A stretch of 64,000 nucleotides of DNA from assembly GCA_016187225.1 (NCBI GenBank), contig JACPKC010000006.1, forward strand, positions 89,051 to 153,050, given 5' to 3'. Every line of letters starts with the position of its first letter. The stretch's first letter is position 1. A program made the translations under genes and the position numbers. The notes under the pieces are model-generated. The model saw only the letters and a list, made by a program, of their open reading frames with translations. It made no database searches and was not told the DNA's origin. This DNA comes from Candidatus Berkelbacteria bacterium (lineage in GTDB: Bacteria; Patescibacteriota; UBA1384; JACPKC01). Positions 1,763-26,099 of the stretch are shown piece after piece.

Positions 1763-2158
1763 CTTAATTGCAAGATCGAAATTAGTTTCGACACTGCAAA
1801 AAGAGCCCCTCCTGCCCATAATCCGCCGGCTGGCGAAGGCAAGAGGGGAAAGTAAAAACTTTGCGGGCACGGAGTTATCAAGCTCGACGTGTCCGCATAT
1901 TCAGATTTTACCTCGCCGCGATGGTGGTCTCGGCTCGGGTTCGGTTCTGAAGAACCGGTTCCCGCCGTAGGCGGGACGGTATCGCCTTTCGCGAGGGTTA
2001 ACCGCCGTTTCGGTATCCCTCCTGCGCCCTGCATCTGATCCTTGCAAAACCATCAAACTTGCAAGAATCTCCTCGTTCCGTGCAGGGAACTTCGTCACGC
2101 TTTTTCAAGCGGACCGGGCTTCTCCGAGTCACGTCGGAGGAACAACGCCCAAAAAAAA

Positions 2159-2521
2159 CTACCAGACCTTCGACGTCCTTACGTACCCGGTCCTGTTTTC
2201 CGTACAGGATCGGTACGACAAGACGGGACGGCCCTCGAATCGGCCTTCTACGATGGGCCCATCGTAAGAAGAGCCGAAATGGCCCTGGGCTTCATCCCAC
2301 CAAGGATAGAAGTCCAGGCCCCGCGGGGCTAACTCCATCCCCTTGGGAGCCGGACTAAAAGTCCAGAACTCCCAGGGGGGTTGCTGCCCCCACTCGAGAG
2401 CCGTCAGCCAACGGCGCCACTCTGCCGCCCGCGCCTTATAGCGAGCATCGAGTGCCGCCTTGACTTCCCAGAGCAGGCTTTCTAATTCCTGCTCTGAAAG
2501 GTCGGCCAGACGGTCGTCCAT
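2159..2521 (-). CDS. hypothetical Trp-rich small protein
   Basis: ORF starting at MDDRLADL with GGAGGA RBS 8 nt upstream. No recognisable domain. Confidence 0.5.
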   Translation of the reverse strand: MDDRLADLSEQELESLLWEVKAALDARYKARAAEWRRWLTALEWGQQPPWEFWTFSPAPKGMELAPRGLDFYPWWDEAQGHFGSSYDGPIVEGRFEGRPVLSYRSCTENRTGYVRTSKVW

Positions 2522-2750
2522 TCGATGATTCCTCCTTCCTTTAATGATGGCCGTATTTATGGATAACGGCGGAACCAAGCCATTCTTGGCCAGCGAGGCG
2601 AGTTTTGAAAGATCTATTTCACGTCAGTGACACGCGAACGATCTTTCAGACTCGCCAGCCGCGATGCGGCGGTGAAGCTTGATTATCCATCAAACCTCGC
2701 CGCCACAACTTGAGTTGCTCAACTTCTACCGATCTCCTATACACCACTAT

Positions 2751-2775
2751 TAAACCGACTCTTCCAGTCCGACAC
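2751..2775. repeat. 25-bp direct repeat copy 1 (CTTCCAGTCCGACACTAAGTGTCGG) containing a perfect 19-bp palindrome TCCGACACTAAGTGTCGGA
   Basis: Exact 25-mer recurs at 3743-3767. The palindrome was seen directly. Confidence 0.85.
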
Positions 2776-3035
2776 TAAGTGTCGGAATATCGGAATATAG
2801 CTACCACGAGGAATTAGCCGATGCCATCTACCGGGCCCTTCCGCCGTTGCCGCCGTTGATCGACGACTTGCTCGATCACCTGCAGCACTAAGGCTCACCT
2901 CCTAAGAAGCGCCATGTTCTATTTTTAAACGCCAAAAAAGGCCGAATTACTTCGGCCCTCCTTGATTTTACGTTCACGCTCCCAAGAAGAGCCCAACCCA
3001 CAGGCTCCCTCTTGACTTCGCAAACGTTAGTTTGC

Positions 3036-3272
3036 TTACTCCTCCAACCGGCGGTATTCGCCCCGCAAAGCTTGACGAACGTCGTAACCCACAAACTTAA
3101 CGCCTTGAGTTGGCGAATCAGCTTGGCCTAGCGCTGGAGCCCGCCCCTCTTGATTTAGCCCGGCATCCTCTACTACCACTTCGTCCGTTCCCTCATCTTT
3201 CGGTTGACACGAGTTGGCGGCCGTTTGGGCTTCCAATTCATGCAAACTTATTTCTGTTGGCTCGTGTTCCAT
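3036..3272 (-). CDS. hypothetical acidic small protein (78 aa)
   Basis: Internal start MEHEPTEISL with AAAGGA RBS. Lies downstream of the 3301-3678 gene on the same strand. Confidence 0.4.
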   Translation of the reverse strand: MEHEPTEISLHELEAQTAANSCQPKDEGTDEVVVEDAGLNQEGRAPALGQADSPTQGVKFVGYDVRQALRGEYRRLEE

Positions 3273-3300
3273 CTTAAATCCTTTCTTTTTAAGGACCTGG

Positions 3301-3678
3301 TTAATTCTTGCGTGGTTTCCACCAACCTGCTGGCTCGGGGCCGCCGACCGCCTCGCCATCCCAAGTCGATTCAGTCCAATCCCAGATAGCTTGTGGTTCA
3401 TTGGGAGCATATTGCTCCGCAAGTCTGACAGTGCTAAAACAGTTCCCGCCGGTTACTCCTTTGTCATCTTCAAGACCAATAAAATCCATTGATTCTTTCG
3501 GCCCCCAAAATGGCTTTAACTCCTTTAATCGTTTACCTTGTCCAACCTGACCGTAACGAGGCCAGATGTGTAATCCAAAATAATCTACCGTTTGTTGGTC
3601 AGAGATTTTTTGGAGGATGTCATTTGCTTTACTCGCGCAACGCTCTTCATCGGGTATTCCTAATGGTTCTCTTTCCAT
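3301..3678 (-). CDS. hypothetical protein (125 aa)
   Basis: ORF with several conserved-looking Trp/Gly residues. No family recognised. Confidence 0.5.
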   Translation of the reverse strand: MEREPLGIPDEERCASKANDILQKISDQQTVDYFGLHIWPRYGQVGQGKRLKELKPFWGPKESMDFIGLEDDKGVTGGNCFSTVRLAEQYAPNEPQAIWDWTESTWDGEAVGGPEPAGWWKPRKN

Positions 3679-3742
3679 ATTTCTCCTTCTGATAGCACGA
3701 ATAACTCCTGCTATCAGTGAAGACCCCGATCCTCTGCCGACA

Positions 3743-3767
3743 CTTCCAGTCCGACACTAAGTGTCGG
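3743..3767. repeat. 25-bp direct repeat copy 2 with the same palindrome
   Basis: Identical 25-mer to 2751-2775. Together the copies bracket the two-gene minus-strand operon. Confidence 0.85.
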
Positions 3768-3836
3768 GAATACAGGAACCACTAATCCTTTTTTACGATC
3801 TCTAATTTCCCTTATTCGCGCCTCTGAAGCCGCCAG

Positions 3837-4760
3837 TTAGACGGATTCAGAAAGGCAAAAAGAGAGCTCATCCGCCAGCCGGCGGATGAGCTCATAGCTG
3901 ACCTGCAACCTTGCCAAGCCGGCAAGGCGGGTCGGAAACACGGCGGTCATCAGCGTGTTTCCCAAGTCCCTGACTCCGGCGCGCTCCCACTGCGGGGACG
4001 CCGGAGCGATCACGGCCGGGACGGCCGGTGATGCTTGTCTCGCCGGCGCTATTGCGACGACGAGACTTGGTCTAAGGCAAAACGGCATCACACGCCTTGC
4101 CTTAAAAAAAGTTATCCATGAGTGGCCATCGGGGAACCCGACAGTCCTGTTCGGTGCGAATGGGTTCGCACCGACGACCACTCTTAAAACTCCGCTGCAC
4201 CTGTGCCACCCGATGGTGACTTGCAGTGGGGTCGGACGTGGACGCGCCCGGTTCCAGTCTCCGACCCTAAAGAGAGTCGGAGTAACGTGCCGGCGGCAGG
4301 CTGGAACACCCCTGCCGCCGCCGGTTGGTCAGCTTACGGGGTCTGAAACCCCGTGCCGACTTTAAGGTGACGCATCGCGCCACCTCCCTTCCCCCCTTCC
4401 GGGGGAGGATTGATTTGCTGTTCGCTCCGCCGCGGCGTGTAGGCCACAGGGTTGCCGCATGGCCGAAGCCGCGACGGAGCGCAGGTTGCAAACCTAGGTG
4501 AGATTACCCCCTCACCCACGGGGAAATTTTCATTCCGGCCCTTTGCCCCAAAAAGGCAAAGGGGGCACCGCAGTCGTTCTACGCCCATCCAGGTGCACCC
4601 GGGTGAGTGGGGACGTAGCTCCCATTAAGCGTCGTTTTTTGCGCTCGTTCGGCCAGGAAGACGGCCTAGTGCTTGTACTGCCAGCGTTCGCACCCTGCGC
4701 TGGAGACATCAGTCCGTATTAACTACCCGCGCTGATGCGCCACGGGCAGATTTTTCAACC
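3837..4760. other. GC-rich ORF-poor segment dense in stable hairpins (candidate structured ncRNA or decayed element)
   Basis: No plausible protein in any frame. There are at least 8 stem-loops of 8-14 bp, e.g. GAGCTCATCCGCC/GGCGGATGAGCTC, CCGGCGGCAGG/CCTGCCGCCGCCGG, and CCCTTTGCC/GGCAAAGGG. Confidence 0.3.
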
Positions 4761-5707
4761 TAGGAGTTGATCAGCGCCTCGAGAACGAGCGCGATGATCT
4801 TCTCGGCGGGGATCGCCGACGTCATCCCCTGGGGCGACGCGACGAGGTCGGCGGGGCCACCCCAGCCCTGCTCCAGCTCTGACAGGCGCGCCTTGAGGGC
4901 CGCCATGTCGAGCGGCGCGGCCGAGGAGTAGCGGGCCACCGTCCACTTCTGGACGGGGCTCTCGTCGGGGCCGGCGCCGGGACGCAGGAAGGACGGGCTG
5001 AAGGCGATGACGACAGGGACGCCGGTAGCGTACCCGACGTCGAAGCCGCGGGGGCTATTGCCCACCACGATCCCGACGCGGTTGCCCGGCAGCACGCTGA
5101 CCTGGAGGGAGGCTTTCGCCTTCTCCAACTCTTCGCGCGCCGTGAACGCGAAGCCACCTATGACCGCGTCGCTGACCTCACCGATCAGGAGGTTGGACAT
5201 CCAGTCCACCTTCTGGTCGATGGTCAGCTTGCGGTCGAAGCAGACGTAGTCGCTGGCGGTGATGGCCTCCTGGTTCTCCTGGACGACCTTCAGGTCGCGG
5301 GCCTGCGGCCCGAGCCCGTCCATGCGGCCGATGGCCGCCACGAGGCGGTTGTCGATCTGCTCGCTCTTGCCGGCCGCCCGGAGGGCGAGCACGGCCATCG
5401 CACCGATGCTGTCCTTGTCGGGCCGGACAGTGGCGAAGATGGAACCCGGCGCGGGCAGGTCGACCGTCAGCGCCGCCTCGATGGCGGACGTCCTCGGGTC
5501 GCCGGTTGGGCCGTGCTGCGGGTCGAGGTTGAACGAGCACCGCTTGGAGAGGGGCGGGCTCGTCACCTCGATCCCGTAGACCGGGGCGCCGGCGCCGAAC
5601 ACCTTCGCGTTGGCCTCGGCCGCGGCCGGCACCTTGTCCTCAGGCCTCGGGTCGAGGCTCGCGAAGATGTAGGTCTGGGTCGTCTGCGGGGAAGGCATGC
5701 CGTTCAT
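4760..5707 (-). CDS. hypothetical protein (315 aa, very GC-rich)
   Basis: Strong AAAGGAGG RBS 7 nt before the ATG. No family recognised. Confidence 0.6.
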   Translation of the reverse strand: MNGMPSPQTTQTYIFASLDPRPEDKVPAAAEANAKVFGAGAPVYGIEVTSPPLSKRCSFNLDPQHGPTGDPRTSAIEAALTVDLPAPGSIFATVRPDKDSIGAMAVLALRAAGKSEQIDNRLVAAIGRMDGLGPQARDLKVVQENQEAITASDYVCFDRKLTIDQKVDWMSNLLIGEVSDAVIGGFAFTAREELEKAKASLQVSVLPGNRVGIVVGNSPRGFDVGYATGVPVVIAFSPSFLRPGAGPDESPVQKWTVARYSSAAPLDMAALKARLSELEQGWGGPADLVASPQGMTSAIPAEKIIALVLEALINS

Positions 5708-5889
5708 AGCAATGCCTCCTTTCTAGTTTCGACGTTTTTTGCCTGGCGTCACCCAGAGTGTTTTCCGGCCACGTGCCGGTGACATCTCGCTTTCCGTCAC
5801 AGACGGATTGAGGCGCAGCTACGCGCCCGGGGCAGTCACGCTCCCCGCCGAGAATCCGTAGCTATGGTGCTACGGGCTCGGTCGCCAAA

Positions 5890-6561
5890 ATGTCTTGTTG
5901 GTGGGTCACTCGTTGGAGTGGCGCACCAAGAGACATGCAACGAAAACATTGCTATTCTCTCCATATGGAGGGTGAACAAATTTCGTCGATGTTCGCGGAA
6001 CCGTACGCCGAACGGCTGACGCCGGAAGAGCGTCGGCGGCTGGGTGCGGTGGCAAGTCAATTGCTCGGCGTTGAGCCGCCAGCTGAGGTTCCGATCTACG
6101 ACCGGACGGTTGTCGAGGCGACATCACGGGTGTACAATCCCGAGTCGCACCGCTACGAACCACTCGTCAACGTCCGCGATCCTGACCGCTTACCCGAAGC
6201 TGCTCGGGAGGCGATCTGGGAGCACGAACAGGTTGAAGTGCACTTTCACAACGGACTGCTGCGACTCACTGGCCCAGCGATTGAGGAGCTCGAGACGACC
6301 GGATTCATCCCGAACGTCTACGAAACCCTGCAGGAGCTGGCGGTGAGCGGCAATGTCTTGGCCCATCCCGAGACACCAAACCTCATTCAGACAAATGAGG
6401 CGCAGGCGGCACTCGTGTTTGGGATCGTCACCTACCTCAAGAAACTTGAGGAGGAATCGACGAAACCGGCGGGTGAAGACCTGGCAACACTTGAGCGACT
6501 CTGGCGCTTGGGAGTTCGGATTGAACCAATTCTGCTGCAGGAAGGGAGTGAGACACGCTGA
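5890..6561 (+). CDS. hypothetical protein (start uncertain)
   Basis: Long ORF whose stop overlaps the next ATG (ATGA coupling). Confidence 0.5.
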   Translation: MSCWWVTRWSGAPRDMQRKHCYSLHMEGEQISSMFAEPYAERLTPEERRRLGAVASQLLGVEPPAEVPIYDRTVVEATSRVYNPESHRYEPLVNVRDPDRLPEAAREAIWEHEQVEVHFHNGLLRLTGPAIEELETTGFIPNVYETLQELAVSGNVLAHPETPNLIQTNEAQAALVFGIVTYLKKLEEESTKPAGEDLATLERLWRLGVRIEPILLQEGSETR

Positions 6562-6926
6562 TGACCGAGCCTGGCCATACCCACGCATCCATCCACTACA
6601 CCGCGGCGGTGCCTGAGGAACGCATCGGTCGGATTCAGCTCACGCTGCGCGACCGAAGGACCGATGCCACAATCGCCGAGGTGATTATCCTCTACGACGG
6701 TGCCCAGCCCGAAGGCTGGTCGTACGACTACCAGATCCTGGCGAAAAACCAGGAAACGGTCACTCAGCTCGCGCACCAGTTCGACACACCGCTCAGTGCT
6801 GGCGATGCGCAACTTGCGCCACACTCGCACCAGCAGTTCGACCGGCTGTTGGCCGATCTGTGTAGTGAGTACAAACTCACCTACACGGCACGGCCACTCT
6901 ACAAGCCACCTGGCCTGCCGTGGTAA
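6561..6926 (+). CDS. hypothetical protein (121 aa)
   Basis: Translationally coupled to the upstream ORF. Confidence 0.5.
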   Translation: MTEPGHTHASIHYTAAVPEERIGRIQLTLRDRRTDATIAEVIILYDGAQPEGWSYDYQILAKNQETVTQLAHQFDTPLSAGDAQLAPHSHQQFDRLLADLCSEYKLTYTARPLYKPPGLPW

Positions 6927-7103
6927 ACACAGCGAGCGGTGGTTGGCCGGGGGTATTCTGCCTCCGGCTTTTTCGTGGGTTTTTAGCGTGTTTTACCACA
7001 CGGGCCGCCTTCGGCCTTCACTCCTTTTGCATCCCGATCCGCCAACTGACGGAAAGGATTCGTCGGTTTAATCCTATTCGGACCAACTGGCTGTGCTAGG
7101 CAG

Positions 7104-7183
7104 CCTGGGGCGAGTGTTTCCCTATATTGGGTGTTGAAACATCCAACACACAATCCTGAACTATTTCAGGGTGCTAGTTGAAT
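7104..7183 (+). repeat. attC-like site 1 (prefix CCTGGGGCGAGTGTTTCCC, then ATCCAAC ... central palindrome CCTGAA..TTCAGG ... GTTGAAT)
   Basis: Fits the inverse core RYYYAAC and core GTTRRRY. Near-identical copy at 8401-8452. Prefix repeated at 7899-7918. Confidence 0.5.
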
Positions 7184-7363
7184 AGTTCCTTCCCTCATGT
7201 CGAGCCAAAATGTTCCCAAGGAGACCAACGAAACCGAAGGGTCGTTGGAGGTTTCCTTGAAGAAATGACGGCTCGATATGCGCGAGTGGGGAGGTTGGAT
7301 CGTAAGGATGGGAGGGGCGACCTCAAGATGAGCTCCGCCTGTCCTTACAAAAAACATTATTAG

Positions 7364-7408
7364 ATCCAACACCATTTGCTCAAATAGTCTTGAGCGTTCT
7401 AGTTGAAT
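7364..7408 (+). repeat. attC-like site 2 (ATCCAAC ... GCTCAA..TTGAGC ... GTTGAAT)
   Basis: Same architecture. Near-identical to 7931-7975. Confidence 0.5.
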
Positions 7409-7437
7409 CCAATGCAGCCATTCGATAGACTACTGCT

Positions 7438-7665
7438 ATGCGCAAGTTTTCAGTGCCAACCACCGTCCGAATCACACTCCACCAGGAAACCGACGGCACA
7501 TACTGGGCCGATAGCCCTGATGCGGTGGGCTGTTTTACAGTTGGTGCAACTATCGACGAGACATTGTTGAACATGAAAGATGCGGTTCGCACCCACTTTG
7601 AATTACCAGCCCGCGCGCCTGTCCAGCTTTCACCCACGCTCTCGGCCAAACTCTCCCTCACATGA
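7438..7665 (+). CDS. hicB: HicB-family antitoxin (UPF0150-like)
   Basis: Sequence YWADSPDAVGCFTVGATIDETLLNMKDAVRTHFE is typical of HicB-like antitoxins. Its stop overlaps the hicA start. Confidence 0.75.
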   Translation: MRKFSVPTTVRITLHQETDGTYWADSPDAVGCFTVGATIDETLLNMKDAVRTHFELPARAPVQLSPTLSAKLSLT

Positions 7666-7898
7666 CTGAACGCTGGCCAGCATTTGCATCGACTGACCTC
7701 ATCCGAGCCTTGCGAAAGCTCGGATTTCTGGTTGTGCCAGGTGGAAAGGGCAGCCACACCAAGCTGGTTCACCCCCGTCACTCCGGCGCACTGACGATTC
7801 CCCAATCCAAATCGCTTGGTAGGGGCATTCGGGCTGCCTTACTCAAACAGATCCACGCCATGGGCGTCGATCTTAGTGCACTGAAGCGCTCTCTCTAG
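7662..7898 (+). CDS. hicA: HicA-family mRNA interferase toxin
   Basis: GSHTKLVHP motif and small basic protein. ATGA overlap with hicB. Confidence 0.75.
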   Translation: MTERWPAFASTDLIRALRKLGFLVVPGGKGSHTKLVHPRHSGALTIPQSKSLGRGIRAALLKQIHAMGVDLSALKRSL

Positions 7899-7975
7899 CC
7901 TGGGGCGAGTGTTTCCCCATGTTGGATTAGATTCAACACCGTTCGCTCAAATAGTCTTGAGCGTTCTAGTTGAAT
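7899..7975 (+). repeat. attC-like site 3 (prefix CCTGGGGCGAGTGTTTCCCC, then ATTCAAC ... GTTGAAT)
   Basis: Starts immediately after the hicA stop. Same modules as sites 1 and 2. Confidence 0.5.
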
Positions 7976-8130
7976 CCAAAGCCAAAAATTTATCAAGTTA
8001 ACTTGATTAAAACCAGGCTCGAATCTTAGGTTTTTAACGTGATTTACCACACGGTGTTTTTCAACCCACCCAATCATGGCGAGGCGAGCGTGCTAGACGC
8101 CAATCTCCTTTCCGATATAGTAAAAATGTT

Positions 8131-8428
8131 ATGGTTAAACTGGCATCACAAAAATTTGCCAAACCTAAAATGGTCAAAATATCGCTTGATCGTGTTAGGA
8201 AATTTTACGCGGCGAGCGCCGTGATGCTTGATTTAGCCGAAGAGATTCTTGAGGAGCATGGCGAGTACACCAAGGAGTTTCTCGCTCGATAGTCTCAAAA
8301 GAGCCGAGGCCGACGTCAGGGCGGGCCGAGTGCAGACTATCCTGTCGCTGGACGAACTACCTAAACACGCCGAGAGCCACGCTATCGCGCGCCGTCGGTT
8401 TGTTGAAAAATCCAACACACAATCCTGA
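8131..8428 (+). pseudogene. frameshifted addiction-module antitoxin-like gene
   Basis: Frame 1 gives MVKISLDRVRKFY...EEHGEYTKEFLAR*. Frame 2 (ATG 8258) gives ...SLDSLKRAEADVRAGRVQTILSLDEL, resembling the C-terminal motif (RRLAEyeAGkvkTI..EE) of RelE/ParE-partner antidote proteins. Its stop lies inside attC-like site 4. Confidence 0.3.
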
Positions 8429-8452
8429 ACTATTTCAGGGTGCTAGTTGAAT
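8410..8452 (+). repeat. attC-like site 4 (ATCCAAC ... CCTGAA..TTCAGG ... GTTGAAT), with a second GTTGAAT at 8492-8498
   Basis: 43/43 match to the site 1 core module. Confidence 0.5.
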
Positions 8453-8541
8453 GCTTCCTTCAATCAGCCGACGATTGGACATCGAATCGTTGTTGAATCC
8501 AAGAATAATGACTGTTATTATCGAATTTGAAAGGTTTAGTT

Positions 8542-8784
8542 ATGATTTCACCTCGTCGATTTAATATTGTTCTCACGCCGGAGCCGGAGGGTGGCTACAC
8601 AGTGACAGTGCCATCTCTGCCGGGTTGCGTAACTTACGGAAAAACAGTCGATGAGGCACATGATATGGCCGCCGATGCGATTACTGGCTATCTGGCCAGT
8701 CTCCGCAAACATCACGAGCCATTGCCAAGCGATCAAGAACCGCTGATTAGCTCGCTTAATCTTGATCGTCGAGTTCGAAAATGA
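8542..8784 (+). CDS. hicB: HicB-family antitoxin
   Basis: Sequence TVTVPSLPGCVTYGKTVDEAHDMAADAITGYL. AAAGG RBS. Confidence 0.75.
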   Translation: MISPRRFNIVLTPEPEGGYTVTVPSLPGCVTYGKTVDEAHDMAADAITGYLASLRKHHEPLPSDQEPLISSLNLDRRVRK

Positions 8785-8794
8785 TGGATCAGCG

Positions 8795-9010
8795 ATGCCA
8801 AAATTACCGCGCTTAACCGCGAAACGCGTCATTACTTTACTGCTCAAACATGGCTTTGTTTTGGATCACTCCACCGGCAGTCATCAGATTTTCTACCACC
8901 CAACAACTCACTGTCGCGTAACGGTACCGTTTCACAATCGAAATCTGCTCATTGGCACGCTCTACTCCATTTTGAAACAAAGCGGCATTCCACGAGATGA
9001 GTTTCGCTAA
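8795..9010 (+). CDS. hicA: HicA-family toxin
   Basis: GSHQIFYHP motif. Starts 11 nt after the hicB stop. Confidence 0.75.
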   Translation: MPKLPRLTAKRVITLLLKHGFVLDHSTGSHQIFYHPTTHCRVTVPFHNRNLLIGTLYSILKQSGIPRDEFR

Positions 9011-9608
9011 CATGCTATTCACGCGCCGTCGAAACCCTCTTACGAGGGTTGGGAATTGATAATGAGGAATATCGAACCCCAATCCTGGCAAGAAGTTAAA
9101 TATACGTTAGATTGGATCCGACAATCAGCCGACGATCGTGTATCAAGATATCTGCTGTCAAAACAGCGACGTGGCCTCGTGAGTTAGGCTTTGAAAGTCT
9201 GCCCCTCATATTAAGACCACGTCGCTGTCCCTAATCGTCCCCTCTTATTTAGATTAGGAAGCAGGCGATCTGGTAGGCGAGAAGTAGGTAAATTCACCGT
9301 CCTAACTCAAACGCTTGAACAAGCGCGAGCTGGAGCGCCGTCTCCTGTTCATGGAGCGGCTGGGACAGCGATTCATCACTGCTTTTCGGTTGCCCTTGGG
9401 AGTGGGAAGGCGCTTATCTCCTTCCATCATCAAGAGGCCAGATAGATAGGGTAAATCGGCAATAACTCCTGTTAAATTGCCGCTTCACCATAAGATTTCG
9501 TTTTGGTGCACCTTACCCTCTAGTGATAGGGCGCACCAAGCGAATTCCTAGGCAGATTTGTGGCTCGAGAGTGAGCCTCATTGTGTTTGTGCCCCTCTGG
9601 AACCACAA

Positions 9609-9680
9609 ATCCAACCTGGGAAACGTGGCAGGTCTGTGACGGCGGATGTGAAATGCAACCGCAACTAGTGAGGATTGAAT
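9609..9680 (+). repeat. degenerate attC-like site 5 (ATCCAAC ... CTAGTGAGGATTGAAT)
   Basis: Shares ATCCAAC and the CTAGT..TTGAAT end with sites 1-4, but the GTT core is degraded. Confidence 0.25.
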
Positions 9681-10520
9681 ACCACACCCCTAACATTCAG
9701 CCTCCGCAAAAAACGGGGCCAAATGGGGTCGATATGGCCGCAGGGGGCCGCCATCACAGACCTGCCGGCAACTAATGTTGCCAACAGGATTAAATAGAAT
9801 GATTACTTACGACCGTTATAAAATTGACGATCATTTTTTACTATCGATGCATCCATACGCAGGGCGCAATGATAGAGATCACAAATACTCATCTATTTTG
9901 ATGCATTCTAGTTTCGCATCCGAGATGAGACCCCGGACAGCCGCCAAACCTGCATCATGCGCTACACTCTGGTACACGTAAACCCTCGTCTTTGATTTAC
10001 CGCCTCTCTAATATGAGATCGCTATGCCCCCCAAATACAGACTTGCAATCGCAGTAGAGAGAGTAGCCACTTTGAGTTGTAAAAGTTCGCCCGACATCTC
10101 TTTCCATCAAAAAAACCTCCAGGAGCGTTGAATATAGGTTGGCAAAATACCAGAACCTGTATCCAGCGGTAGATGCTCCTGACACCTATTCCGAAGGTTT
10201 TCTCGTTTTGTTTGGATGTGCTTCCCATCCGTGTGGGTGGGACTAGCGGCGTTCGGTGAGGAGGGGAACACCGGACGCCACTAATCGCACACACTTTTTG
10301 TCTTTTTGTTAACGCAGAGACTCTAGCATAGGTTATTGGCTTTGTCAAGACCCCGCCGGAGAGTCATTTCTGCTTAATTTATACGAACGTGAAATGTATA
10401 AATTTATCTTAAGGTTACGCGTATTTTATACCACTCGATGACTCACTTGTCAAGTATACATTATACGTTCGTATAAAGAATAACCTGCCACAGAGGGCAG
10501 GCTATCGGGTAGGGGAAATG

Positions 10521-21387: not shown

Positions 21388-21680
21388 GTAATTATACACT
21401 TTGCGCGAACCTACTACGAACGGAAAACCGACTAAGGAAGCCAGCTCGCCGCCGCTCGCTAACACTCGCCGCCCAGCAAAAAAGTTTTCTCTGCGTTTCT
21501 GATTTCGCGCGCACCCGATTTTTTCTTCTAAAAGGAAAAGAAAACTTTTTTGCTGGCTTCTGCTCTCTCCGAGCAGGGCGGCGGGCTTGGCCTCTGTTTT
21601 TTGCAAGAACACGGCGGAATTCCCCCCACACCCCCCTTCCGCCGTGTTCTTGCGGGGACGGACGGAATTTTTGGCGGTGG
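21388..21680. repeat. ~290-bp inverted repeat, left copy
   Basis: About 90% identical to the reverse complement of 25724-26009. Contains a perfect 17-bp stem GCAAGAACACGGCGGAA/TTCCGCCGTGTTCTTGC with a C-rich loop, and an internal IR CAGCAAAAAAGTTTTC/GAAAACTTTTTTGCTG. Confidence 0.85.
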
Positions 21681-22634
21681 CTACTTTTCTAAATCTACTT
21701 CTTTATCTCCGAATTTCAAATTTTTCTTCGCAATCCACACAAATCCTTTTTCTGGTGTGATCACGGCAACATCAATTGAACCGCCGACGCCGGGCATATC
21801 ACCCGGGTCGCCTGCGATACCATCAGAAAATCTTTGAATGGCCGTAGTTGTTCCGATTGCCAAGGTGCTAAAATCAATGCCGTCCTGCAAAGTCATGGTA
21901 CCCCATTGGATGACGTATTCTAAACTCCTCAATTGTTTCTGAACTTCTTGCGAACCCATATCCGAAGCCATTTTTTGCATGACCGGCAAATTGCCAATTC
22001 GTCCATCAAAACCAAGAACGATTCTCGATACCACATCAATCTGACCTATCCAACTGGCACCATATTCTTGCCCTCGCTTTGTGCTATCTCTCTTGAGCTC
22101 AACATCGCCGGGAACATAAACCATCGCAACTTGGTGTGATTCATCCTGATTGTAACCAGCAACAATAAACTGCAACTGTTCTACACCAGCAACGCCTTCT
22201 TTTTGGATTCCTTTCGGGTCTTTGAATTTGAACTTAACATGACCCTTTTCTTCTTTGATCTCAATAATTTGACAGCCCTGTCGCTCCAAATCAGCTTTTA
22301 TTTGATTAGGAAGGATTTTTAACTGCTCTTTGTATTGATACTTTGTCTCAAAAAATTCTTTTATCTTTTGGGCGGTTTCAAGCATTGTTAATTTTTCGGT
22401 CTCGATACTTTTCTTAAACTCTTCGATAAACCTGCTTATGTTTTTCAAGACGCCATTTTCCGGCAAAAACGCAAGCCCCGCAACTATTAAACCTGCCCTA
22501 TCATTTATCTTGAAAACTTTTGACGCAGAATCGGAGCCGATTCTGCTCATACCTTTTTGATTTCGGTAGGACTGCCGACTATCAGCGGCTAAAACGATTC
22601 CTTCTGGTGTAGTTGTGTTGATTCCGAGACTCAT
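21681..22634 (-). CDS. proteasome beta-subunit-like Ntn hydrolase with a ~60-aa internal insertion
   Basis: N-terminal TTTPEGIVLAADSRQS resembles the proteasome-beta/HslV TTI..GVVLAADSRAT motif. C-terminal VGGSIDVAVITPEKG resembles GSGSNIDLCVI. Confidence 0.6.
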   Translation of the reverse strand: MSLGINTTTPEGIVLAADSRQSYRNQKGMSRIGSDSASKVFKINDRAGLIVAGLAFLPENGVLKNISRFIEEFKKSIETEKLTMLETAQKIKEFFETKYQYKEQLKILPNQIKADLERQGCQIIEIKEEKGHVKFKFKDPKGIQKEGVAGVEQLQFIVAGYNQDESHQVAMVYVPGDVELKRDSTKRGQEYGASWIGQIDVVSRIVLGFDGRIGNLPVMQKMASDMGSQEVQKQLRSLEYVIQWGTMTLQDGIDFSTLAIGTTTAIQRFSDGIAGDPGDMPGVGGSIDVAVITPEKGFVWIAKKNLKFGDKEVDLEK

Positions 22635-22640
22635 AGTATT

Positions 22641-23306
22641 TTATTTGTTAAGAAAATTGTTAATAATAAGTACCGCAATAATGGAATAAACAAGTGCGGT
22701 AAGGCTGTTTCCGATTATTGTGACATCCACCCAAGTCAATCCTGCGAGCAATAAAGCCCAGCTAAAGTTTCTAACAACTCCGGCGTCTTGAAATACCGTA
22801 TGCACAATGGCACCAATTCCTTTCGCTAATGCGTGTGTTGAAGTTTGACCAGATGACAGCGTGCCATTGAAATATCTGCCGATGGCCAAATTAACAGCTG
22901 TCTCAACAACAGTACGCAGATCATTTTCTATATTTGTGCCATCGGTTTTAAGCGCACCACCGTTGTAGCCAATGTTGTCAGATGTTGGCAACGATACGGT
23001 TACTCCGTTCATAAGTTCCGTCGGCTGTTTAAGCTGTTGTGGTGGTAACGATCCGGCCCGATACTGCATAGGGAAAAAGGAGACTCCTAAAAAATCCAGC
23101 GCCTTGTCAGTGAGCAGTATGGAACGCGTCTTTTGCGTTCCTTTCCGCAGATAACCGTGTCTTGTAAGTGCGGCGATGATTCCAAGGATAGATTTGTTGT
23201 CCGAAACACTAATCCCACTCACCATTTCGCGGAGAGTTGGAGAACTCCCGTATTTGAGCCGGTAGCCACTGATGTATTGGAGTAATTTCTTCTGATTATC
23301 TGTCAT
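22641..23306 (-). CDS. LexA-type winged-helix DNA-binding domain protein with C-terminal transmembrane helices (no S24 peptidase domain)
   Basis: N-terminus KKLLQYISGYRLKYGSSPTLREMVSGISVSDNKSILGIIAALTRHGYLRK fits the LexA DNA-binding domain pattern. Last ~50 aa are hydrophobic. 6-bp gap to the downstream Ntn hydrolase gene. Confidence 0.55.
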   Translation of the reverse strand: MTDNQKKLLQYISGYRLKYGSSPTLREMVSGISVSDNKSILGIIAALTRHGYLRKGTQKTRSILLTDKALDFLGVSFFPMQYRAGSLPPQQLKQPTELMNGVTVSLPTSDNIGYNGGALKTDGTNIENDLRTVVETAVNLAIGRYFNGTLSSGQTSTHALAKGIGAIVHTVFQDAGVVRNFSWALLLAGLTWVDVTIIGNSLTALVYSIIAVLIINNFLNK

Positions 23307-23371
23307 ATAAAACCATTATACTCCACCAAATGGTGGAGTCAAGTGATTTTCGCGGCCTATCCTGTGGATAA

Positions 23372-24199
23372 TTAGTAACCGAGAGCTAACTGGTCGAGCA
23401 TATCTGGCCCTTTTTCCTTGCCTACTTCTTGGTAAATACTTAAAACTTCCTCGTATGTACCCTTACCGCCAACCATGTCCCAAAATTCCTTTCCGACCAA
23501 AACCTCGTTTTCCAAATCCATGTAATTAAGAATGAAACTATGACGATACGTTGATTTTTCGATACCATAGGGATTGTATGCGGTAGCATAAAACGCTTTT
23601 GTCTTTCCGTACTTCGCGTGAGTGATTGCATGAATTTGCAAAAGTCGTCCCGTTGCTTCCAAGCATTGGCCCTTGTTCGGCTTAGGACTTTTGATTTCGA
23701 AAAACCACTCCTCGCCGGATTTTGTCTCAATGTATAAATCAGCAATGCTTACGCGCTCAACGCCCGCAACAGTTTTACTTAAATCAACAACTTCTTTTAC
23801 TAAATCGGGATATTTCGATTTCATCCCACCGCTTCCGATCCTGTTCGTTATATCTTCAATACGCTTAATTGCTTTTGCCGTAACAACACCTCGAACGCGA
23901 TATCCGCGTTCAGCGTTTTTGTGAACAGATTTTGCTACAAGACGCGCACACTCTTCAAAGGTCGTTCCGAGCTTCGTGGAAAAGGAGCGTTCAAATTCGC
24001 TTACTCGCAAAATTCCGTCCGGCAAAAGCGATTCGTGAAATGGTTTGAGATCTCCGGCTTTCGATTCGTTGCGCAACGGACGCAATTGCTTAGGGTCGAA
24101 ACCATTTTGCTTGGCTTCATCAACCATCCCTTGGATAAATCCTTCAAGATAGCCCTTGATTGTGTTTCTGACTTCTTTGGTAATCATATTCTTTGCCAA
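23372..24199 (-). CDS. putative Type II restriction endonuclease (PD-(D/E)xK-like)
   Basis: Overlaps the methyltransferase gene by 16 bp. Candidate D...EIK catalytic motif (IADLYIET...FFEIKSPK). Confidence 0.5.
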   Translation of the reverse strand: MAKNMITKEVRNTIKGYLEGFIQGMVDEAKQNGFDPKQLRPLRNESKAGDLKPFHESLLPDGILRVSEFERSFSTKLGTTFEECARLVAKSVHKNAERGYRVRGVVTAKAIKRIEDITNRIGSGGMKSKYPDLVKEVVDLSKTVAGVERVSIADLYIETKSGEEWFFEIKSPKPNKGQCLEATGRLLQIHAITHAKYGKTKAFYATAYNPYGIEKSTYRHSFILNYMDLENEVLVGKEFWDMVGGKGTYEEVLSIYQEVGKEKGPDMLDQLALGY

Positions 24200-25377
24200 A
24201 TTAAAATGCTTTCGTAAAATGCACCTTCGCGTCTTCCAGTTCGGCGGTTCACATGACGCTCAACACGTCCAATTTCCTTAAATCCCGCGTCTTCTGCTTT
24301 GTAAAGTCCGTATTTGTCGTTTACAACAATGAGAGCCAAACCTTTTGGGGCCATATATTTACGAGTATGGAGCAAAACGTCATTTATGCCTTTGATATAG
24401 CCCTGTTTTGCTTGCTGGGACTGTCCATTTTTTGCAGGCCCGATTTCTTTCGTCTCGTTATTTTTTAGACCAAGTAATTCGTAAGCGTATTTATGCTGTT
24501 CGTGGTAATCAATTAAACCAATGTAGGGGGGAGAAGTAAAAACCATATCAATGCCCTTCGGTAGCTCAACCTCGCGCGAATCCGCATGGTTTACAACTAC
24601 TTTTGCTTTTGTCTTAATTTTAGAAAATTCTTTAACGCGATCTAGAGTATCAATAGTGTAGCGCGATAAGAATTTATATGCTTCTTCAACTGGTTGGCAA
24701 GTTCGTTGGTGTTTATAGCATTGATACGGTTTTATCTGCGGCTCTTTGGGAAAATCTAAGTCATAGTGTGTAACGAGCCGAGCAGAACGCGCCGAACGAG
24801 ATAAAACAATTCTTAGTAAATCTTGGTAAGTATAATCCTTAATCAATCGCGAATAACATAAAAGCTCTTTTTGCGTGTTCGGCGCAAACCATTTTTGTAT
24901 ATATTCGTTTTTGGTCGAAAACAACTTATTTACCTTCTCGTCTTTGGAAAATTTACTTTTGTAAGTATCAAGGCGTTTCAAAATATCGTAAATTTCTTTT
25001 TCAAGAAGCGGAACATCATAATCGGCAGTTTTAACTTTTGAAAGTAAAACATTAAAAATAGATATGTCGGTGCCGACCGAATCTATGCCGAGAGCATTTG
25101 CCTCAACCAAAGTCGTTCCGCTTCCCGCGAACGGATCATAAACAAGGGTTGGTTTATATTTCCGCAAAAATATCTCTACAAGTTGTGGAATGAATTTACC
25201 GAGATAAGGATGTAAGCGATGAACATGCTTTGTTCTCTGATATTCCGGCAAATCGCTCTCGCGCCAATTCAAATTTAATGTTTCAAGGGCGGTTTCCGGT
25301 TTTACACTCGCAAAATCGGTCAGCGGTTGCTGATTATATTGCTTTGCTATTTTTTGTGCGATTGTGTTGTCGTACAT
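24184..25377 (-). CDS. DNA methyltransferase (N6-adenine/N4-cytosine class, alpha architecture)
   Basis: Motif I DPFAGSGTT and motif IV TSPPY. Confidence 0.85.
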   Translation of the reverse strand: MYDNTIAQKIAKQYNQQPLTDFASVKPETALETLNLNWRESDLPEYQRTKHVHRLHPYLGKFIPQLVEIFLRKYKPTLVYDPFAGSGTTLVEANALGIDSVGTDISIFNVLLSKVKTADYDVPLLEKEIYDILKRLDTYKSKFSKDEKVNKLFSTKNEYIQKWFAPNTQKELLCYSRLIKDYTYQDLLRIVLSRSARSARLVTHYDLDFPKEPQIKPYQCYKHQRTCQPVEEAYKFLSRYTIDTLDRVKEFSKIKTKAKVVVNHADSREVELPKGIDMVFTSPPYIGLIDYHEQHKYAYELLGLKNNETKEIGPAKNGQSQQAKQGYIKGINDVLLHTRKYMAPKGLALIVVNDKYGLYKAEDAGFKEIGRVERHVNRRTGRREGAFYESILIWQRI

Positions 25378-25381
25378 AGTT

Positions 25382-25582
25382 TTATTTTTTCAAAAGATCA
25401 TCAACAGACACATCAAGGGCTTTCGCAATCCTTTGGATTGTCTCAATAGTCGGGTTGGGGCTTTCATCCAACTCTATCTTAACAACCGTATTGAGCGACA
25501 AATCAGCAAGTTTTGAGAGCTTATCTTGCGAAAGCCCCTTGTCTTGTCTAAATCGTTTTATGTTCTTGCCTATTGTGGACAT
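25382..25582 (-). CDS. XRE-family HTH controller (C) protein of the R-M operon
   Basis: 66-aa HTH protein (GLSQDKLSKLADLSLNTVVKIE) 4 bp upstream of the methyltransferase gene. Confidence 0.75.
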   Translation of the reverse strand: MSTIGKNIKRFRQDKGLSQDKLSKLADLSLNTVVKIELDESPNPTIETIQRIAKALDVSVDDLLKK

Positions 25583-26009: not shown

Positions 26010-26013
26010 TACT

Positions 26014-26099
26014 GGTGCCCGGGAGAGGACTCGAACCTCCACGCCCAGAGGGCACATGGTCCTAAGCCATGCCTGTCTGCCAGTTCCAGCACCCGGGCA
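26014..26099 (-). tRNA. tRNA-Leu(TAG)
   Basis: Long variable arm. Anticodon stem CATGG/CCATG, loop CTTAGGA. Acceptor GCCCGGG/CCCGGGC. Confidence 0.8.

Follow-up and report, generated by a model that had tools for sequence, protein, structure and literature searches.

Introduction

Why is a proteasome-type peptidase encoded next to a LexA-type DNA-binding protein, and what might the two do together? The question is raised by a locus in a 64,000-nucleotide (nt) stretch of contig JACPKC010000006.1 from a Candidatus Berkelbacteria bacterium (the whole stretch is referred to below as the window). Here the genes of a 221-amino-acid (aa) LexA-type protein, called the partner, and of a 317-aa proteasome homolog, called the peptidase, follow each other on the minus strand.

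A 2021 study described 22 families of prokaryotic proteasome homologs without a clue to their function (PMC8665760). The study reported no genomic context or co-occurrence pattern indicating function, and accessory factors for these homologs were likewise not found (Fuchs, Alva and Lupas 2021, PMC8665760). The locus described here and its relatives give one such family, PMI-3, a context: a co-inherited LexA-type partner, operators that co-vary with it, a conserved linker motif, and restriction-modification (R-M) or defence cassettes. For a family without a function, this module of tiny groundwater bacteria provides a first testable functional clue. Our preferred, still tentative reading is that the locus may be a proteolytic switch or effector module that represses itself through an operator in its promoter and whose partner would be cleaved by the peptidase.

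A PMI-3 peptidase with intact catalytic residues

The open reading frames (ORFs) of the pair, which are separated by 6 nt, have the coordinates and descriptions given in the original prediction, a reading of the window's letters. The features of the pair are the following.

21681..22634, minus strand: gene of the PMI-3 proteasome homolog, 317 aa, a T1-type N-terminal nucleophile (Ntn) hydrolase with Ser2, Asp18, Lys39 and Gly53
22641..23306, minus strand: partner gene, 221 aa, encoding a LexA-type winged helix, a disordered linker and a C-terminal hydrophobic helical hairpin
23082..23306, minus strand: LexA-type winged-helix domain, aa 1-75 (Pfam, NCBIfam, PDB 3k2z, AlphaFold2)
22932..22952, minus strand: linker motif L-K-T-D-G-T-N, aa 119-125, with residues invariant among partners
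22647..22784, minus strand: C-terminal hydrophobic helical hairpin, aa 175-220 (AlphaFold2 helices and Kyte-Doolittle hydrophobicity)
23315..23342, minus strand: predicted promoter TTGACT-16 nt-TATAAT, an 11/12 consensus match whose layout is repeated in relatives
23320..23339, no strand: operator-like palindrome ACTCCACCA-(AA/TT)-TGGTGGAGT, filling the promoter spacer

That the second gene encodes a proteasome-type Ntn hydrolase with intact catalytic residues, as originally proposed, is borne out by profile, alignment and structural model. Profile matches of the single sequence are weak: the Pfam Proteasome model scores 21.8 bits, just below its gathering score of 22.4, the NCBIfam archaeal beta-subunit model scores 22.5 bits, and searching the PDB with this one sequence returned weak proteasome-alpha matches only. 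The structural evidence for the fold is much stronger. An AlphaFold2 model based on an alignment of 37 diverse homologs has a mean predicted local distance difference test (pLDDT) score of 95 and displays the alpha-beta-beta-alpha Ntn fold known from proteasome subunits.

Each of the 37 aligned family members starts with M-S or M-T, and D18, S19, R20, K39 and G53 are nearly invariant among them. In a hidden Markov model alignment to the T. acidophilum beta subunit, Ser2 corresponds to Thr1, D18 to Glu17, K39 to Lys33 and G53 to Gly47. The M-[S/T] start and the aligned catalytic residues together make the peptidase look like an active Ntn peptidase, its nucleophile Ser2 presumably exposed by removal of Met1. 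The TTT run at aa 7-9, which the original prediction quoted, is ruled out as the nucleophile by the same alignment, which places Ser2 at Thr1. The single insertion of about 60 aa that had been proposed is replaced in the AlphaFold2 model by several. One forms a sheet of three strands (about aa 120-150), another adds helices (about aa 200-245), and the rest are small hairpins.

The family is large, with 1993 matches in a word-indexed search and 777 representatives at 50% identity. Entry P0004, which is OGZ26396.1, is 94% identical to it over the full length. OGZ26396.1 is the named representative of PMI-3, a "proteasome homolog with multiple insertions", and the insertions of such homologs may block ring assembly (Fuchs, Alva and Lupas 2021, PMC8665760). 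By sequence identity, then, the peptidase belongs to PMI-3 and is not a new family. The fold, the catalytic residues and the insertions after H1/H2 and between H3/H4 are common to PMI-3 as published and to the window protein. The protein is thus the same, and the LexA-type partner, the operator and the R-M association are what the present analysis adds. The PMI-3 representative itself has a LexA-type neighbour, OGZ26395.1.

A LexA-type partner without a protease domain

Pfam LexA_DNA_bind (PF01726) matches aa 1-61 of the partner with an E value of 3.5e-5 and 23.9 bits (gathering score 23.7). A profile of 17 partner homologs matches the N domain of T. maritima LexA (3k2z) with an E value of 9e-5, and partner variants at other loci match the LexA DNA-binding domain with E values down to 1e-13. 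The NCBIfam lexA model matches aa 1-67 only (26 bits against a cut-off of 111), and no Peptidase_S24 domain was found in the partner with Pfam or NCBIfam. The original description, a LexA-type winged helix lacking S24, therefore stands, and the missing domain together with the partial lexA match indicates that the partner is not a LexA family member.

In the AlphaFold2 model the winged helix occupies aa 1-73 (pLDDT 72-82) and is followed by a low-confidence linker at aa 76-132 (pLDDT 30-45) and by a C-terminal hairpin with helices at aa 175-198 and 201-220. The two helices of the hairpin have Kyte-Doolittle means over 19 residues of 1.62 and 1.97, marginal to positive for a membrane segment. 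The partner had been predicted to end in transmembrane (TM) helices; the hydrophobic hairpin does pass the threshold in the window, and since alleles of the L001 type fall under it, the partner is probably, not certainly, a membrane protein. The hairpin is a probable membrane anchor and/or dimerisation element.

Among partners with 42-53% overall identity, L/I-K-T-D-G-T-N is the sole invariant block beyond the winged helix, with K120, T121, G123 and T124 unchanged throughout. The motif lies in the linker, where pLDDT is below 50, and is a candidate docking or cleavage site. Partners occur in two architectures, one of about 190-225 aa with the hydrophobic hairpin and one of 265-337 aa with a soluble C-terminal domain.

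Promoter and putative operator

The predicted promoter of the pair is a strong one that matches the sigma-70 consensus at 11 of 12 positions and begins 30 nt past the endonuclease stop codon of the preceding R-M genes. Its -10 hexamer ends 8 nt ahead of the partner ATG, a layout similar to that seen in relatives. Given this short distance the partner mRNA is probably leaderless or nearly so, as is the mRNA of lambda cI transcribed from PRM.

The promoter spacer is a perfect palindrome, ACTCCACCA-TT-TGGTGGAGT on the coding strand. In relatives, too, TTGAC, a palindrome and a -10 element lie upstream of the partner gene, and the palindrome arms differ from locus to locus and change together. The arm is ACTCCACAA in L001, L014 and L015, ACCGCCACT and ACCGTTACT in L008 and L021, ACCTGAC in L010, ACCTTAC in L029 and TTTACTACA in L046 (L numbers designate the loci compared). 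Together these are six to seven different palindromes at one and the same position, with arms that change in a compensatory way and half-sites that co-vary with the partner subfamily. Arms of at least 9 nt were found in 8 of 22 related upstream regions, against 0.35% of shuffles. No second copy of the palindrome was found in the 64-kb window with up to 3 mismatches allowed.

These observations suggest that the partner represses its own operon. The original prediction had placed the pair in one operon with the R-M system. Its own promoter and an operator-like palindrome unique in 64 kb speak against this: the pair appears autonomous and not simply the tail of the R-M operon, and we reject it both as a part of that operon and as its controller. 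The window scan found no operator near the R-M genes, so that the circuit typical of R-M C proteins is not seen here. Transcription may still read through from the R-M genes into the pair.

The arrangement recalls LexA and lambda cI, which have a palindromic operator in their own promoter, a flexible linker before a C-terminal element likely needed for dimerisation and, in the case of LexA, a homologous N-terminal winged helix. Unlike them, the partner has no S24 Ser-Lys domain and no Ala-Gly site, it ends in a hydrophobic hairpin, and any protease would be a separate enzyme, an Ntn hydrolase of the T1 family.

Conservation of the pairing

Pair loci were gathered from contigs by exact protein look-up, together with 80 genome loci from a pattern scan. 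In about 24 loci, most of them from the candidate phyla radiation (CPR), the peptidase gene is directly preceded by a LexA-type gene, with a 4-nt overlap or a gap of a few nt, so that conservation of the gene neighbourhood, the check proposed with the original prediction, holds. Partner-bearing loci are L001-L022, L024, L025, L028, L029, L034, L037, L038, L040, L042 and L046. The adjacency recurs on many unrelated contigs and is not due to chance. In a neighbour-joining tree the partner type tracks the peptidase clades, and within one clade partner and peptidase are co-inherited. The tight linkage originally proposed thus holds within that clade and does not extend to PMI-3 relatives of Methanobacterium and Atribacterota, which have no LexA partner. 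A partner universal to the peptidase family is ruled out by these relatives and by PMI-4-like ones: the Methanobacterium PMI-3 loci have no conserved partner, and the 4 PMI-4-like relatives sampled are solitary or in other contexts.

The Atribacterota PMI-3 gene follows, after a gap of 27-28 nt, the gene of a protein of about 390-397 aa with two N-terminal TM helices and tetratricopeptide (TPR) repeats (L048, L050, L053, L055, L057, L060, L061, L065, L066 and L070). This is a second, unrelated, membrane-anchored type of partner.

Other neighbours were found at loci without a LexA partner. In Methanobacterium L058, L062, L069 and L071 (about 7330-7950 and neighbours) a PMI-3-like gene follows a methylpurine-DNA glycosylase gene. 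Among all sampled loci without a LexA partner, HhH-GPD/OGG-type glycosylase genes recur with 3 matches and Tag-type ones with 2, which may point to a link between the peptidase and DNA-damage repair or be coincidence. In Omnitrophota L099/L100 (4173-6828) the gene of a 275-aa PMI-4-like homolog follows a ThiF/E1-like gene at a distance of 14 nt. The same-strand run also holds a Prok-E2_E gene and is followed by ParB-methyltransferase and terminase genes. Ubiquitin-like conjugation genes are here directly linked to a bacterial proteasome homolog.

The two genes of the pair evolve at very different rates. Between the window and L014 (Magasanikbacteria) the peptidase gene and the 3' repeat described below share 93% nucleotide identity and the peptidase proteins 97%, and the partners are about 47% identical, with no blastn nucleotide match over the partner gene. 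The similarity breaks at the partner-peptidase gene junction, and beyond the winged helix the two partners share only the motif and the hairpin. Overall the peptidase is conserved far more than the partner (94-97% against 45-47% identity). The family ranges over CPR lineages, Atribacterota, Clostridia, Omnitrophota and Methanobacterium at 56-97% identity, a spread over phyla and domains that indicates horizontal transfer. Searches of IMG/VR, GenBank phages and PLSDB plasmids gave no relatives, and carriage by phages or plasmids is unsupported.

Several of these properties would also suit a toxin-antitoxin (TA) or abortive-infection (Abi) type of module that works without cleavage. The peptidase would then be a growth-arresting effector, and the partner would repress the operon and neutralise or sequester the peptidase, perhaps at the membrane, until this labile protein is lost or titrated and the peptidase is freed. 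The pair shares with type II TA modules and R-M C proteins a compact operon whose promoter holds the operator, specificities of operator and repressor that diversify, and an R-M setting that is mobile. It is bicistronic with a 6-nt or overlapping junction and has the TA-like order, DNA-binding gene first. The fast-evolving partner beside a conserved effector, the modular swap of partner alleles at the gene junction, the R-M/defence cassettes and the horizontal spread over CPR, Atribacterota, Clostridia and archaea all fit such a module. We nevertheless judge it unlikely. Solitary peptidase homologs exist, and PMI-3 and PMI-4 genes standing alone in ordinary chromosomal contexts argue against intrinsic toxicity; antitoxins with a hydrophobic hairpin are unusual; and we know of no T1 peptidase among toxins. 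Neither protein of the pair matches any family of PADLOC-DB 2.0 at E <= 1, a search in which the C, M and R proteins match R-M models. The likeness to C proteins is also limited, since the island has a separate C protein (25382-25582) and the operator of the pair is not at the R-M genes.

Restriction-modification context

On the minus strand the pair closes a run of five consecutive genes identified by ORF calls, Pfam and PADLOC: those of the C protein, the methyltransferase (M), the endonuclease (R), the partner and the peptidase. As originally stated, the pair comes directly after the C-M-R genes in the same direction, and the R-M/defence setting holds by Pfam and PADLOC.

23372..25582, minus strand: type II R-M system (C, M and R; Pfam and PADLOC), a context of the pair, not shown to be in its regulon
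25382-25582, minus strand: C protein, 66 aa, HTH_3
24184-25377, minus strand: N6/N4 DNA methyltransferase, 397 aa
23372-24199, minus strand: TdeIII-like type II endonuclease, 275 aa, Pfam E 5e-61

All three R-M genes are directly upstream of the pair. To see how far this setting is general, genes within 4.5 kb of 24 pair loci were compared with those at 20 loci without a LexA partner. DNA methyltransferases make up 15 of 137 neighbours at the pair loci and 4 of 135 at the partner-less loci, a 4-fold enrichment (Fisher p = 0.015) that rests on small numbers and partly related loci. Further neighbours of the pair loci are Res subunits, endonucleases of the HaeII and TdeIII types, Vsr and three large serine recombinases. 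The R-M systems beside the pair belong to unrelated types, with type II, type III and Dam plus Vsr all represented. The module is enriched beside R-M genes.

In L010 (1293-2840, minus strand), and also in L011 and L013, a 515-aa protein within R-M systems fuses a complete LexA (DNA-binding and S24 domains) to a Dam-type methyltransferase. The same fusion occurs in two repeat-bracketed cassettes and hints at a DNA-damage-responsive control of methylation.

Could the pair protect the cell from its own restriction enzyme? In this explanation self-restriction damage would induce the peptidase, which would degrade the neighbouring endonuclease, a parallel to the degradation of HsdR by ClpXP in type I systems. 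The pair does lie directly downstream of R-M genes at many loci, and the LexA-S24 fusions to Dam-type methyltransferases link damage sensing to R-M in the same kind of cassette. Proteolytic alleviation is, besides, an established principle (PMC12707154). The diversity of the adjacent endonucleases (TdeIII-like, HaeII-like, type III Res and others) weakens the idea, since one conserved peptidase would need many unrelated substrates; some pair loci, such as L005, have no nearby R-M gene, and in the window the R-M genes have no operator nearby. We regard restriction alleviation as very improbable.

Flanking inverted repeats

The five-gene block is bracketed by inverted-repeat arms of about 290 nt, 87-97% complementary.

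21388..21681, plus strand: left arm, about 290 nt, starting at the peptidase stop codon
25723..26009, minus strand: right arm, abutting the 3' end of tRNA-Leu(tag)
26013-26098, minus strand: tRNA-Leu(tag), adjoining the right arm

The repeat has no Rfam family and contains two hairpins that are long and perfect (17 and 20 bp). The L014 island has the same arrangement with different R-M genes inside (arms 4167-4483 and 8945-9226). A 36-nt core of the repeat is present in at least 120 groundwater metagenome contigs (L101-L220). Among the matches listed, 12 contigs have inward-facing repeat pairs 1.6-6.3 kb apart, and the genes between them are mostly of R-M or defence type (methyltransferases, BsobI, TdeIII, Res, Vsr, ThsB-TIR and AAA_13); 12 of 96 repeat copies adjoin the 3' end of a tRNA gene, and the pair is present in 1 of the 120 repeat-bearing contigs. 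The repeats as specific ends of a pair-carrying transposon are ruled out by the 119 listed contigs without the pair. The repeat is instead generic and brackets mainly R-M and defence genes, which makes the pair an optional passenger in a larger family of cassettes, and it may mark a boundary of cassette exchange or of a mobile element in CPR genomes.

Just outside the left arm of the L014 island, a 567-aa large serine recombinase gene (2357-4060, minus strand) overlaps the 3' part of tRNA-Val. Large serine recombinases are found near 3 of the 24 pair loci and none in the window.

The pair could also be a plain regulator and its enzyme. The winged-helix protein would do no more than control the transcription of a peptidase or amidase, and the function of this enzyme, such as protein quality control in reduced genomes, would have nothing to do with the fate of the partner or with R-M. 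Proximity to R-M genes would reflect shared integration hot spots. An operator at the pair's own promoter only, a generic flanking repeat with the pair on so few of the contigs that bear it, and PMI relatives in housekeeping neighbourhoods agree with this, as does the failure to find accessory factors for PMI homologs (PMC8665760). We think it quite unlikely all the same, for it leaves unexplained an invariant motif in a disordered, fast-evolving linker, the hydrophobic or membrane-anchored upstream partners of independent clades (LexA-TM and the Atribacterota TM-TPR protein), the 4-fold methyltransferase enrichment and a patchy cross-domain distribution typical of accessory genes.

A proposed proteolytic switch

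The self-repressed proteolytic switch that we tentatively prefer would work as follows. A dimer of the partner would bind the palindrome and repress its own operon, the C-terminal hydrophobic hairpin providing dimerisation and probably membrane attachment. Upon a signal, perhaps DNA damage by the cell's own restriction enzyme, an infection, or the gain or loss of the cassette, the peptidase would cut the disordered linker at or near the invariant K-T-D-G-T. The cut would separate the DNA-binding domain from the dimerisation or anchor element, much as RecA-stimulated cleavage does in LexA and lambda cI. The operon would be derepressed and the level of the peptidase would rise, and the peptidase would be the output, acting on further targets, for example in growth arrest and abortive infection or in a damping of restriction. 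Both the interaction of the two proteins and the cleavage of the repressor are inferred from sequence. The core of the original prediction, a peptidase that would stand in for S24 in trans and cut the repressor, is plausible. In a more specific version the T1 Ntn peptidase would work in trans as the protease dedicated to a LexA-like repressor tethered to the membrane, and the switch, carried by R-M/defence cassettes, would fire the peptidase as an effector of abortive infection or of an anti-self-restriction feedback; in this full form we find it doubtful.

In favour of the switch count the close spacing of the two ORFs with a LexA-type domain and intact catalytic residues, the conserved linkage, the palindrome in the promoter spacer, an invariant motif in a disordered, substrate-like linker, and the R-M neighbourhood. 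Several observations weigh against it. Hairpin hydrophobicity is higher in L008 and L022 and below the membrane threshold in L001, so that membrane insertion is marginal in some alleles, and the soluble LexA-type partners of 265-337 aa lack the K-T-D-G-T motif. In the window the operator was seen at no promoter but that of the pair, so that a downstream regulon is not apparent. The many PMI-3 genes without a LexA partner imply that the peptidase has a partner-independent activity, and the small, partly related sample behind the R-M enrichment counts here as well.

Adjacent genes for a repressor and a protease are known from ImmR/ImmA of ICEBs1, CapH/CapP of CBASS and DdrO/IrrE of Deinococcus, often in mobile or defence loci, and proteolysis of the repressor turns these loci on. 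The pair resembles them in this adjacency (a 6-nt gap here, and about 24 loci). They combine an XRE-type helix-turn-helix protein with a COG2856 Zn-metallopeptidase and control neighbouring operons, whereas the pair has a LexA-type repressor and a proteasome-type protease and its sole visible target is the pair itself. The PADLOC capH model matches only the R-M C protein at the locus. Regulatory or DNA-binding domains tethered by hydrophobic helices are found in RsiW/RseA, ToxR and CadC, and these tethered regulators change activity on cleavage, as proposed for the partner. Known membrane-tethered regulators are processed by site-1 and site-2 membrane proteases; in the pair the enzyme would be a cytoplasmic Ntn peptidase, and a released repressor would probably lose its activity instead of gaining it. 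The likeness to LexA, ImmR/ImmA, CapH/CapP and DdrO/IrrE would be one of logic, not of homology.

The peptidase family and both domains are already known. The LexA-type pairing, the operator architecture and the cassette context look new, since they are not described in the literature searched. In agreement with the original view of the pairing as undescribed, no description of it was found: Fuchs et al. report no informative context, neither term, proteasome or LexA, occurs in a 2025 R-M review, and PADLOC has no model for either protein. If the switch is real, a proteasome-type enzyme would join S24 and ImmA/IrrE among the repressor-cleaving proteases. The pair would then be a previously unrecognised class of regulated-proteolysis switch and give a first function to any PMI-type proteasome homolog, and it would show ultra-small CPR bacteria regulating or supplementing restriction.

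Other features of the window

Apart from the pair and its cassette, the region at about 1900-10500 of the window stands out by its much higher G+C content, which reaches 64% at 4-6 kb where the remainder has about 47%, and by its scarcity of long ORFs. Two pairs of direct repeats of 57-66 nt (7132-8466) and a HicB/HicA-like pair (8527-9010) lie in this region, which looks like foreign or degraded DNA.

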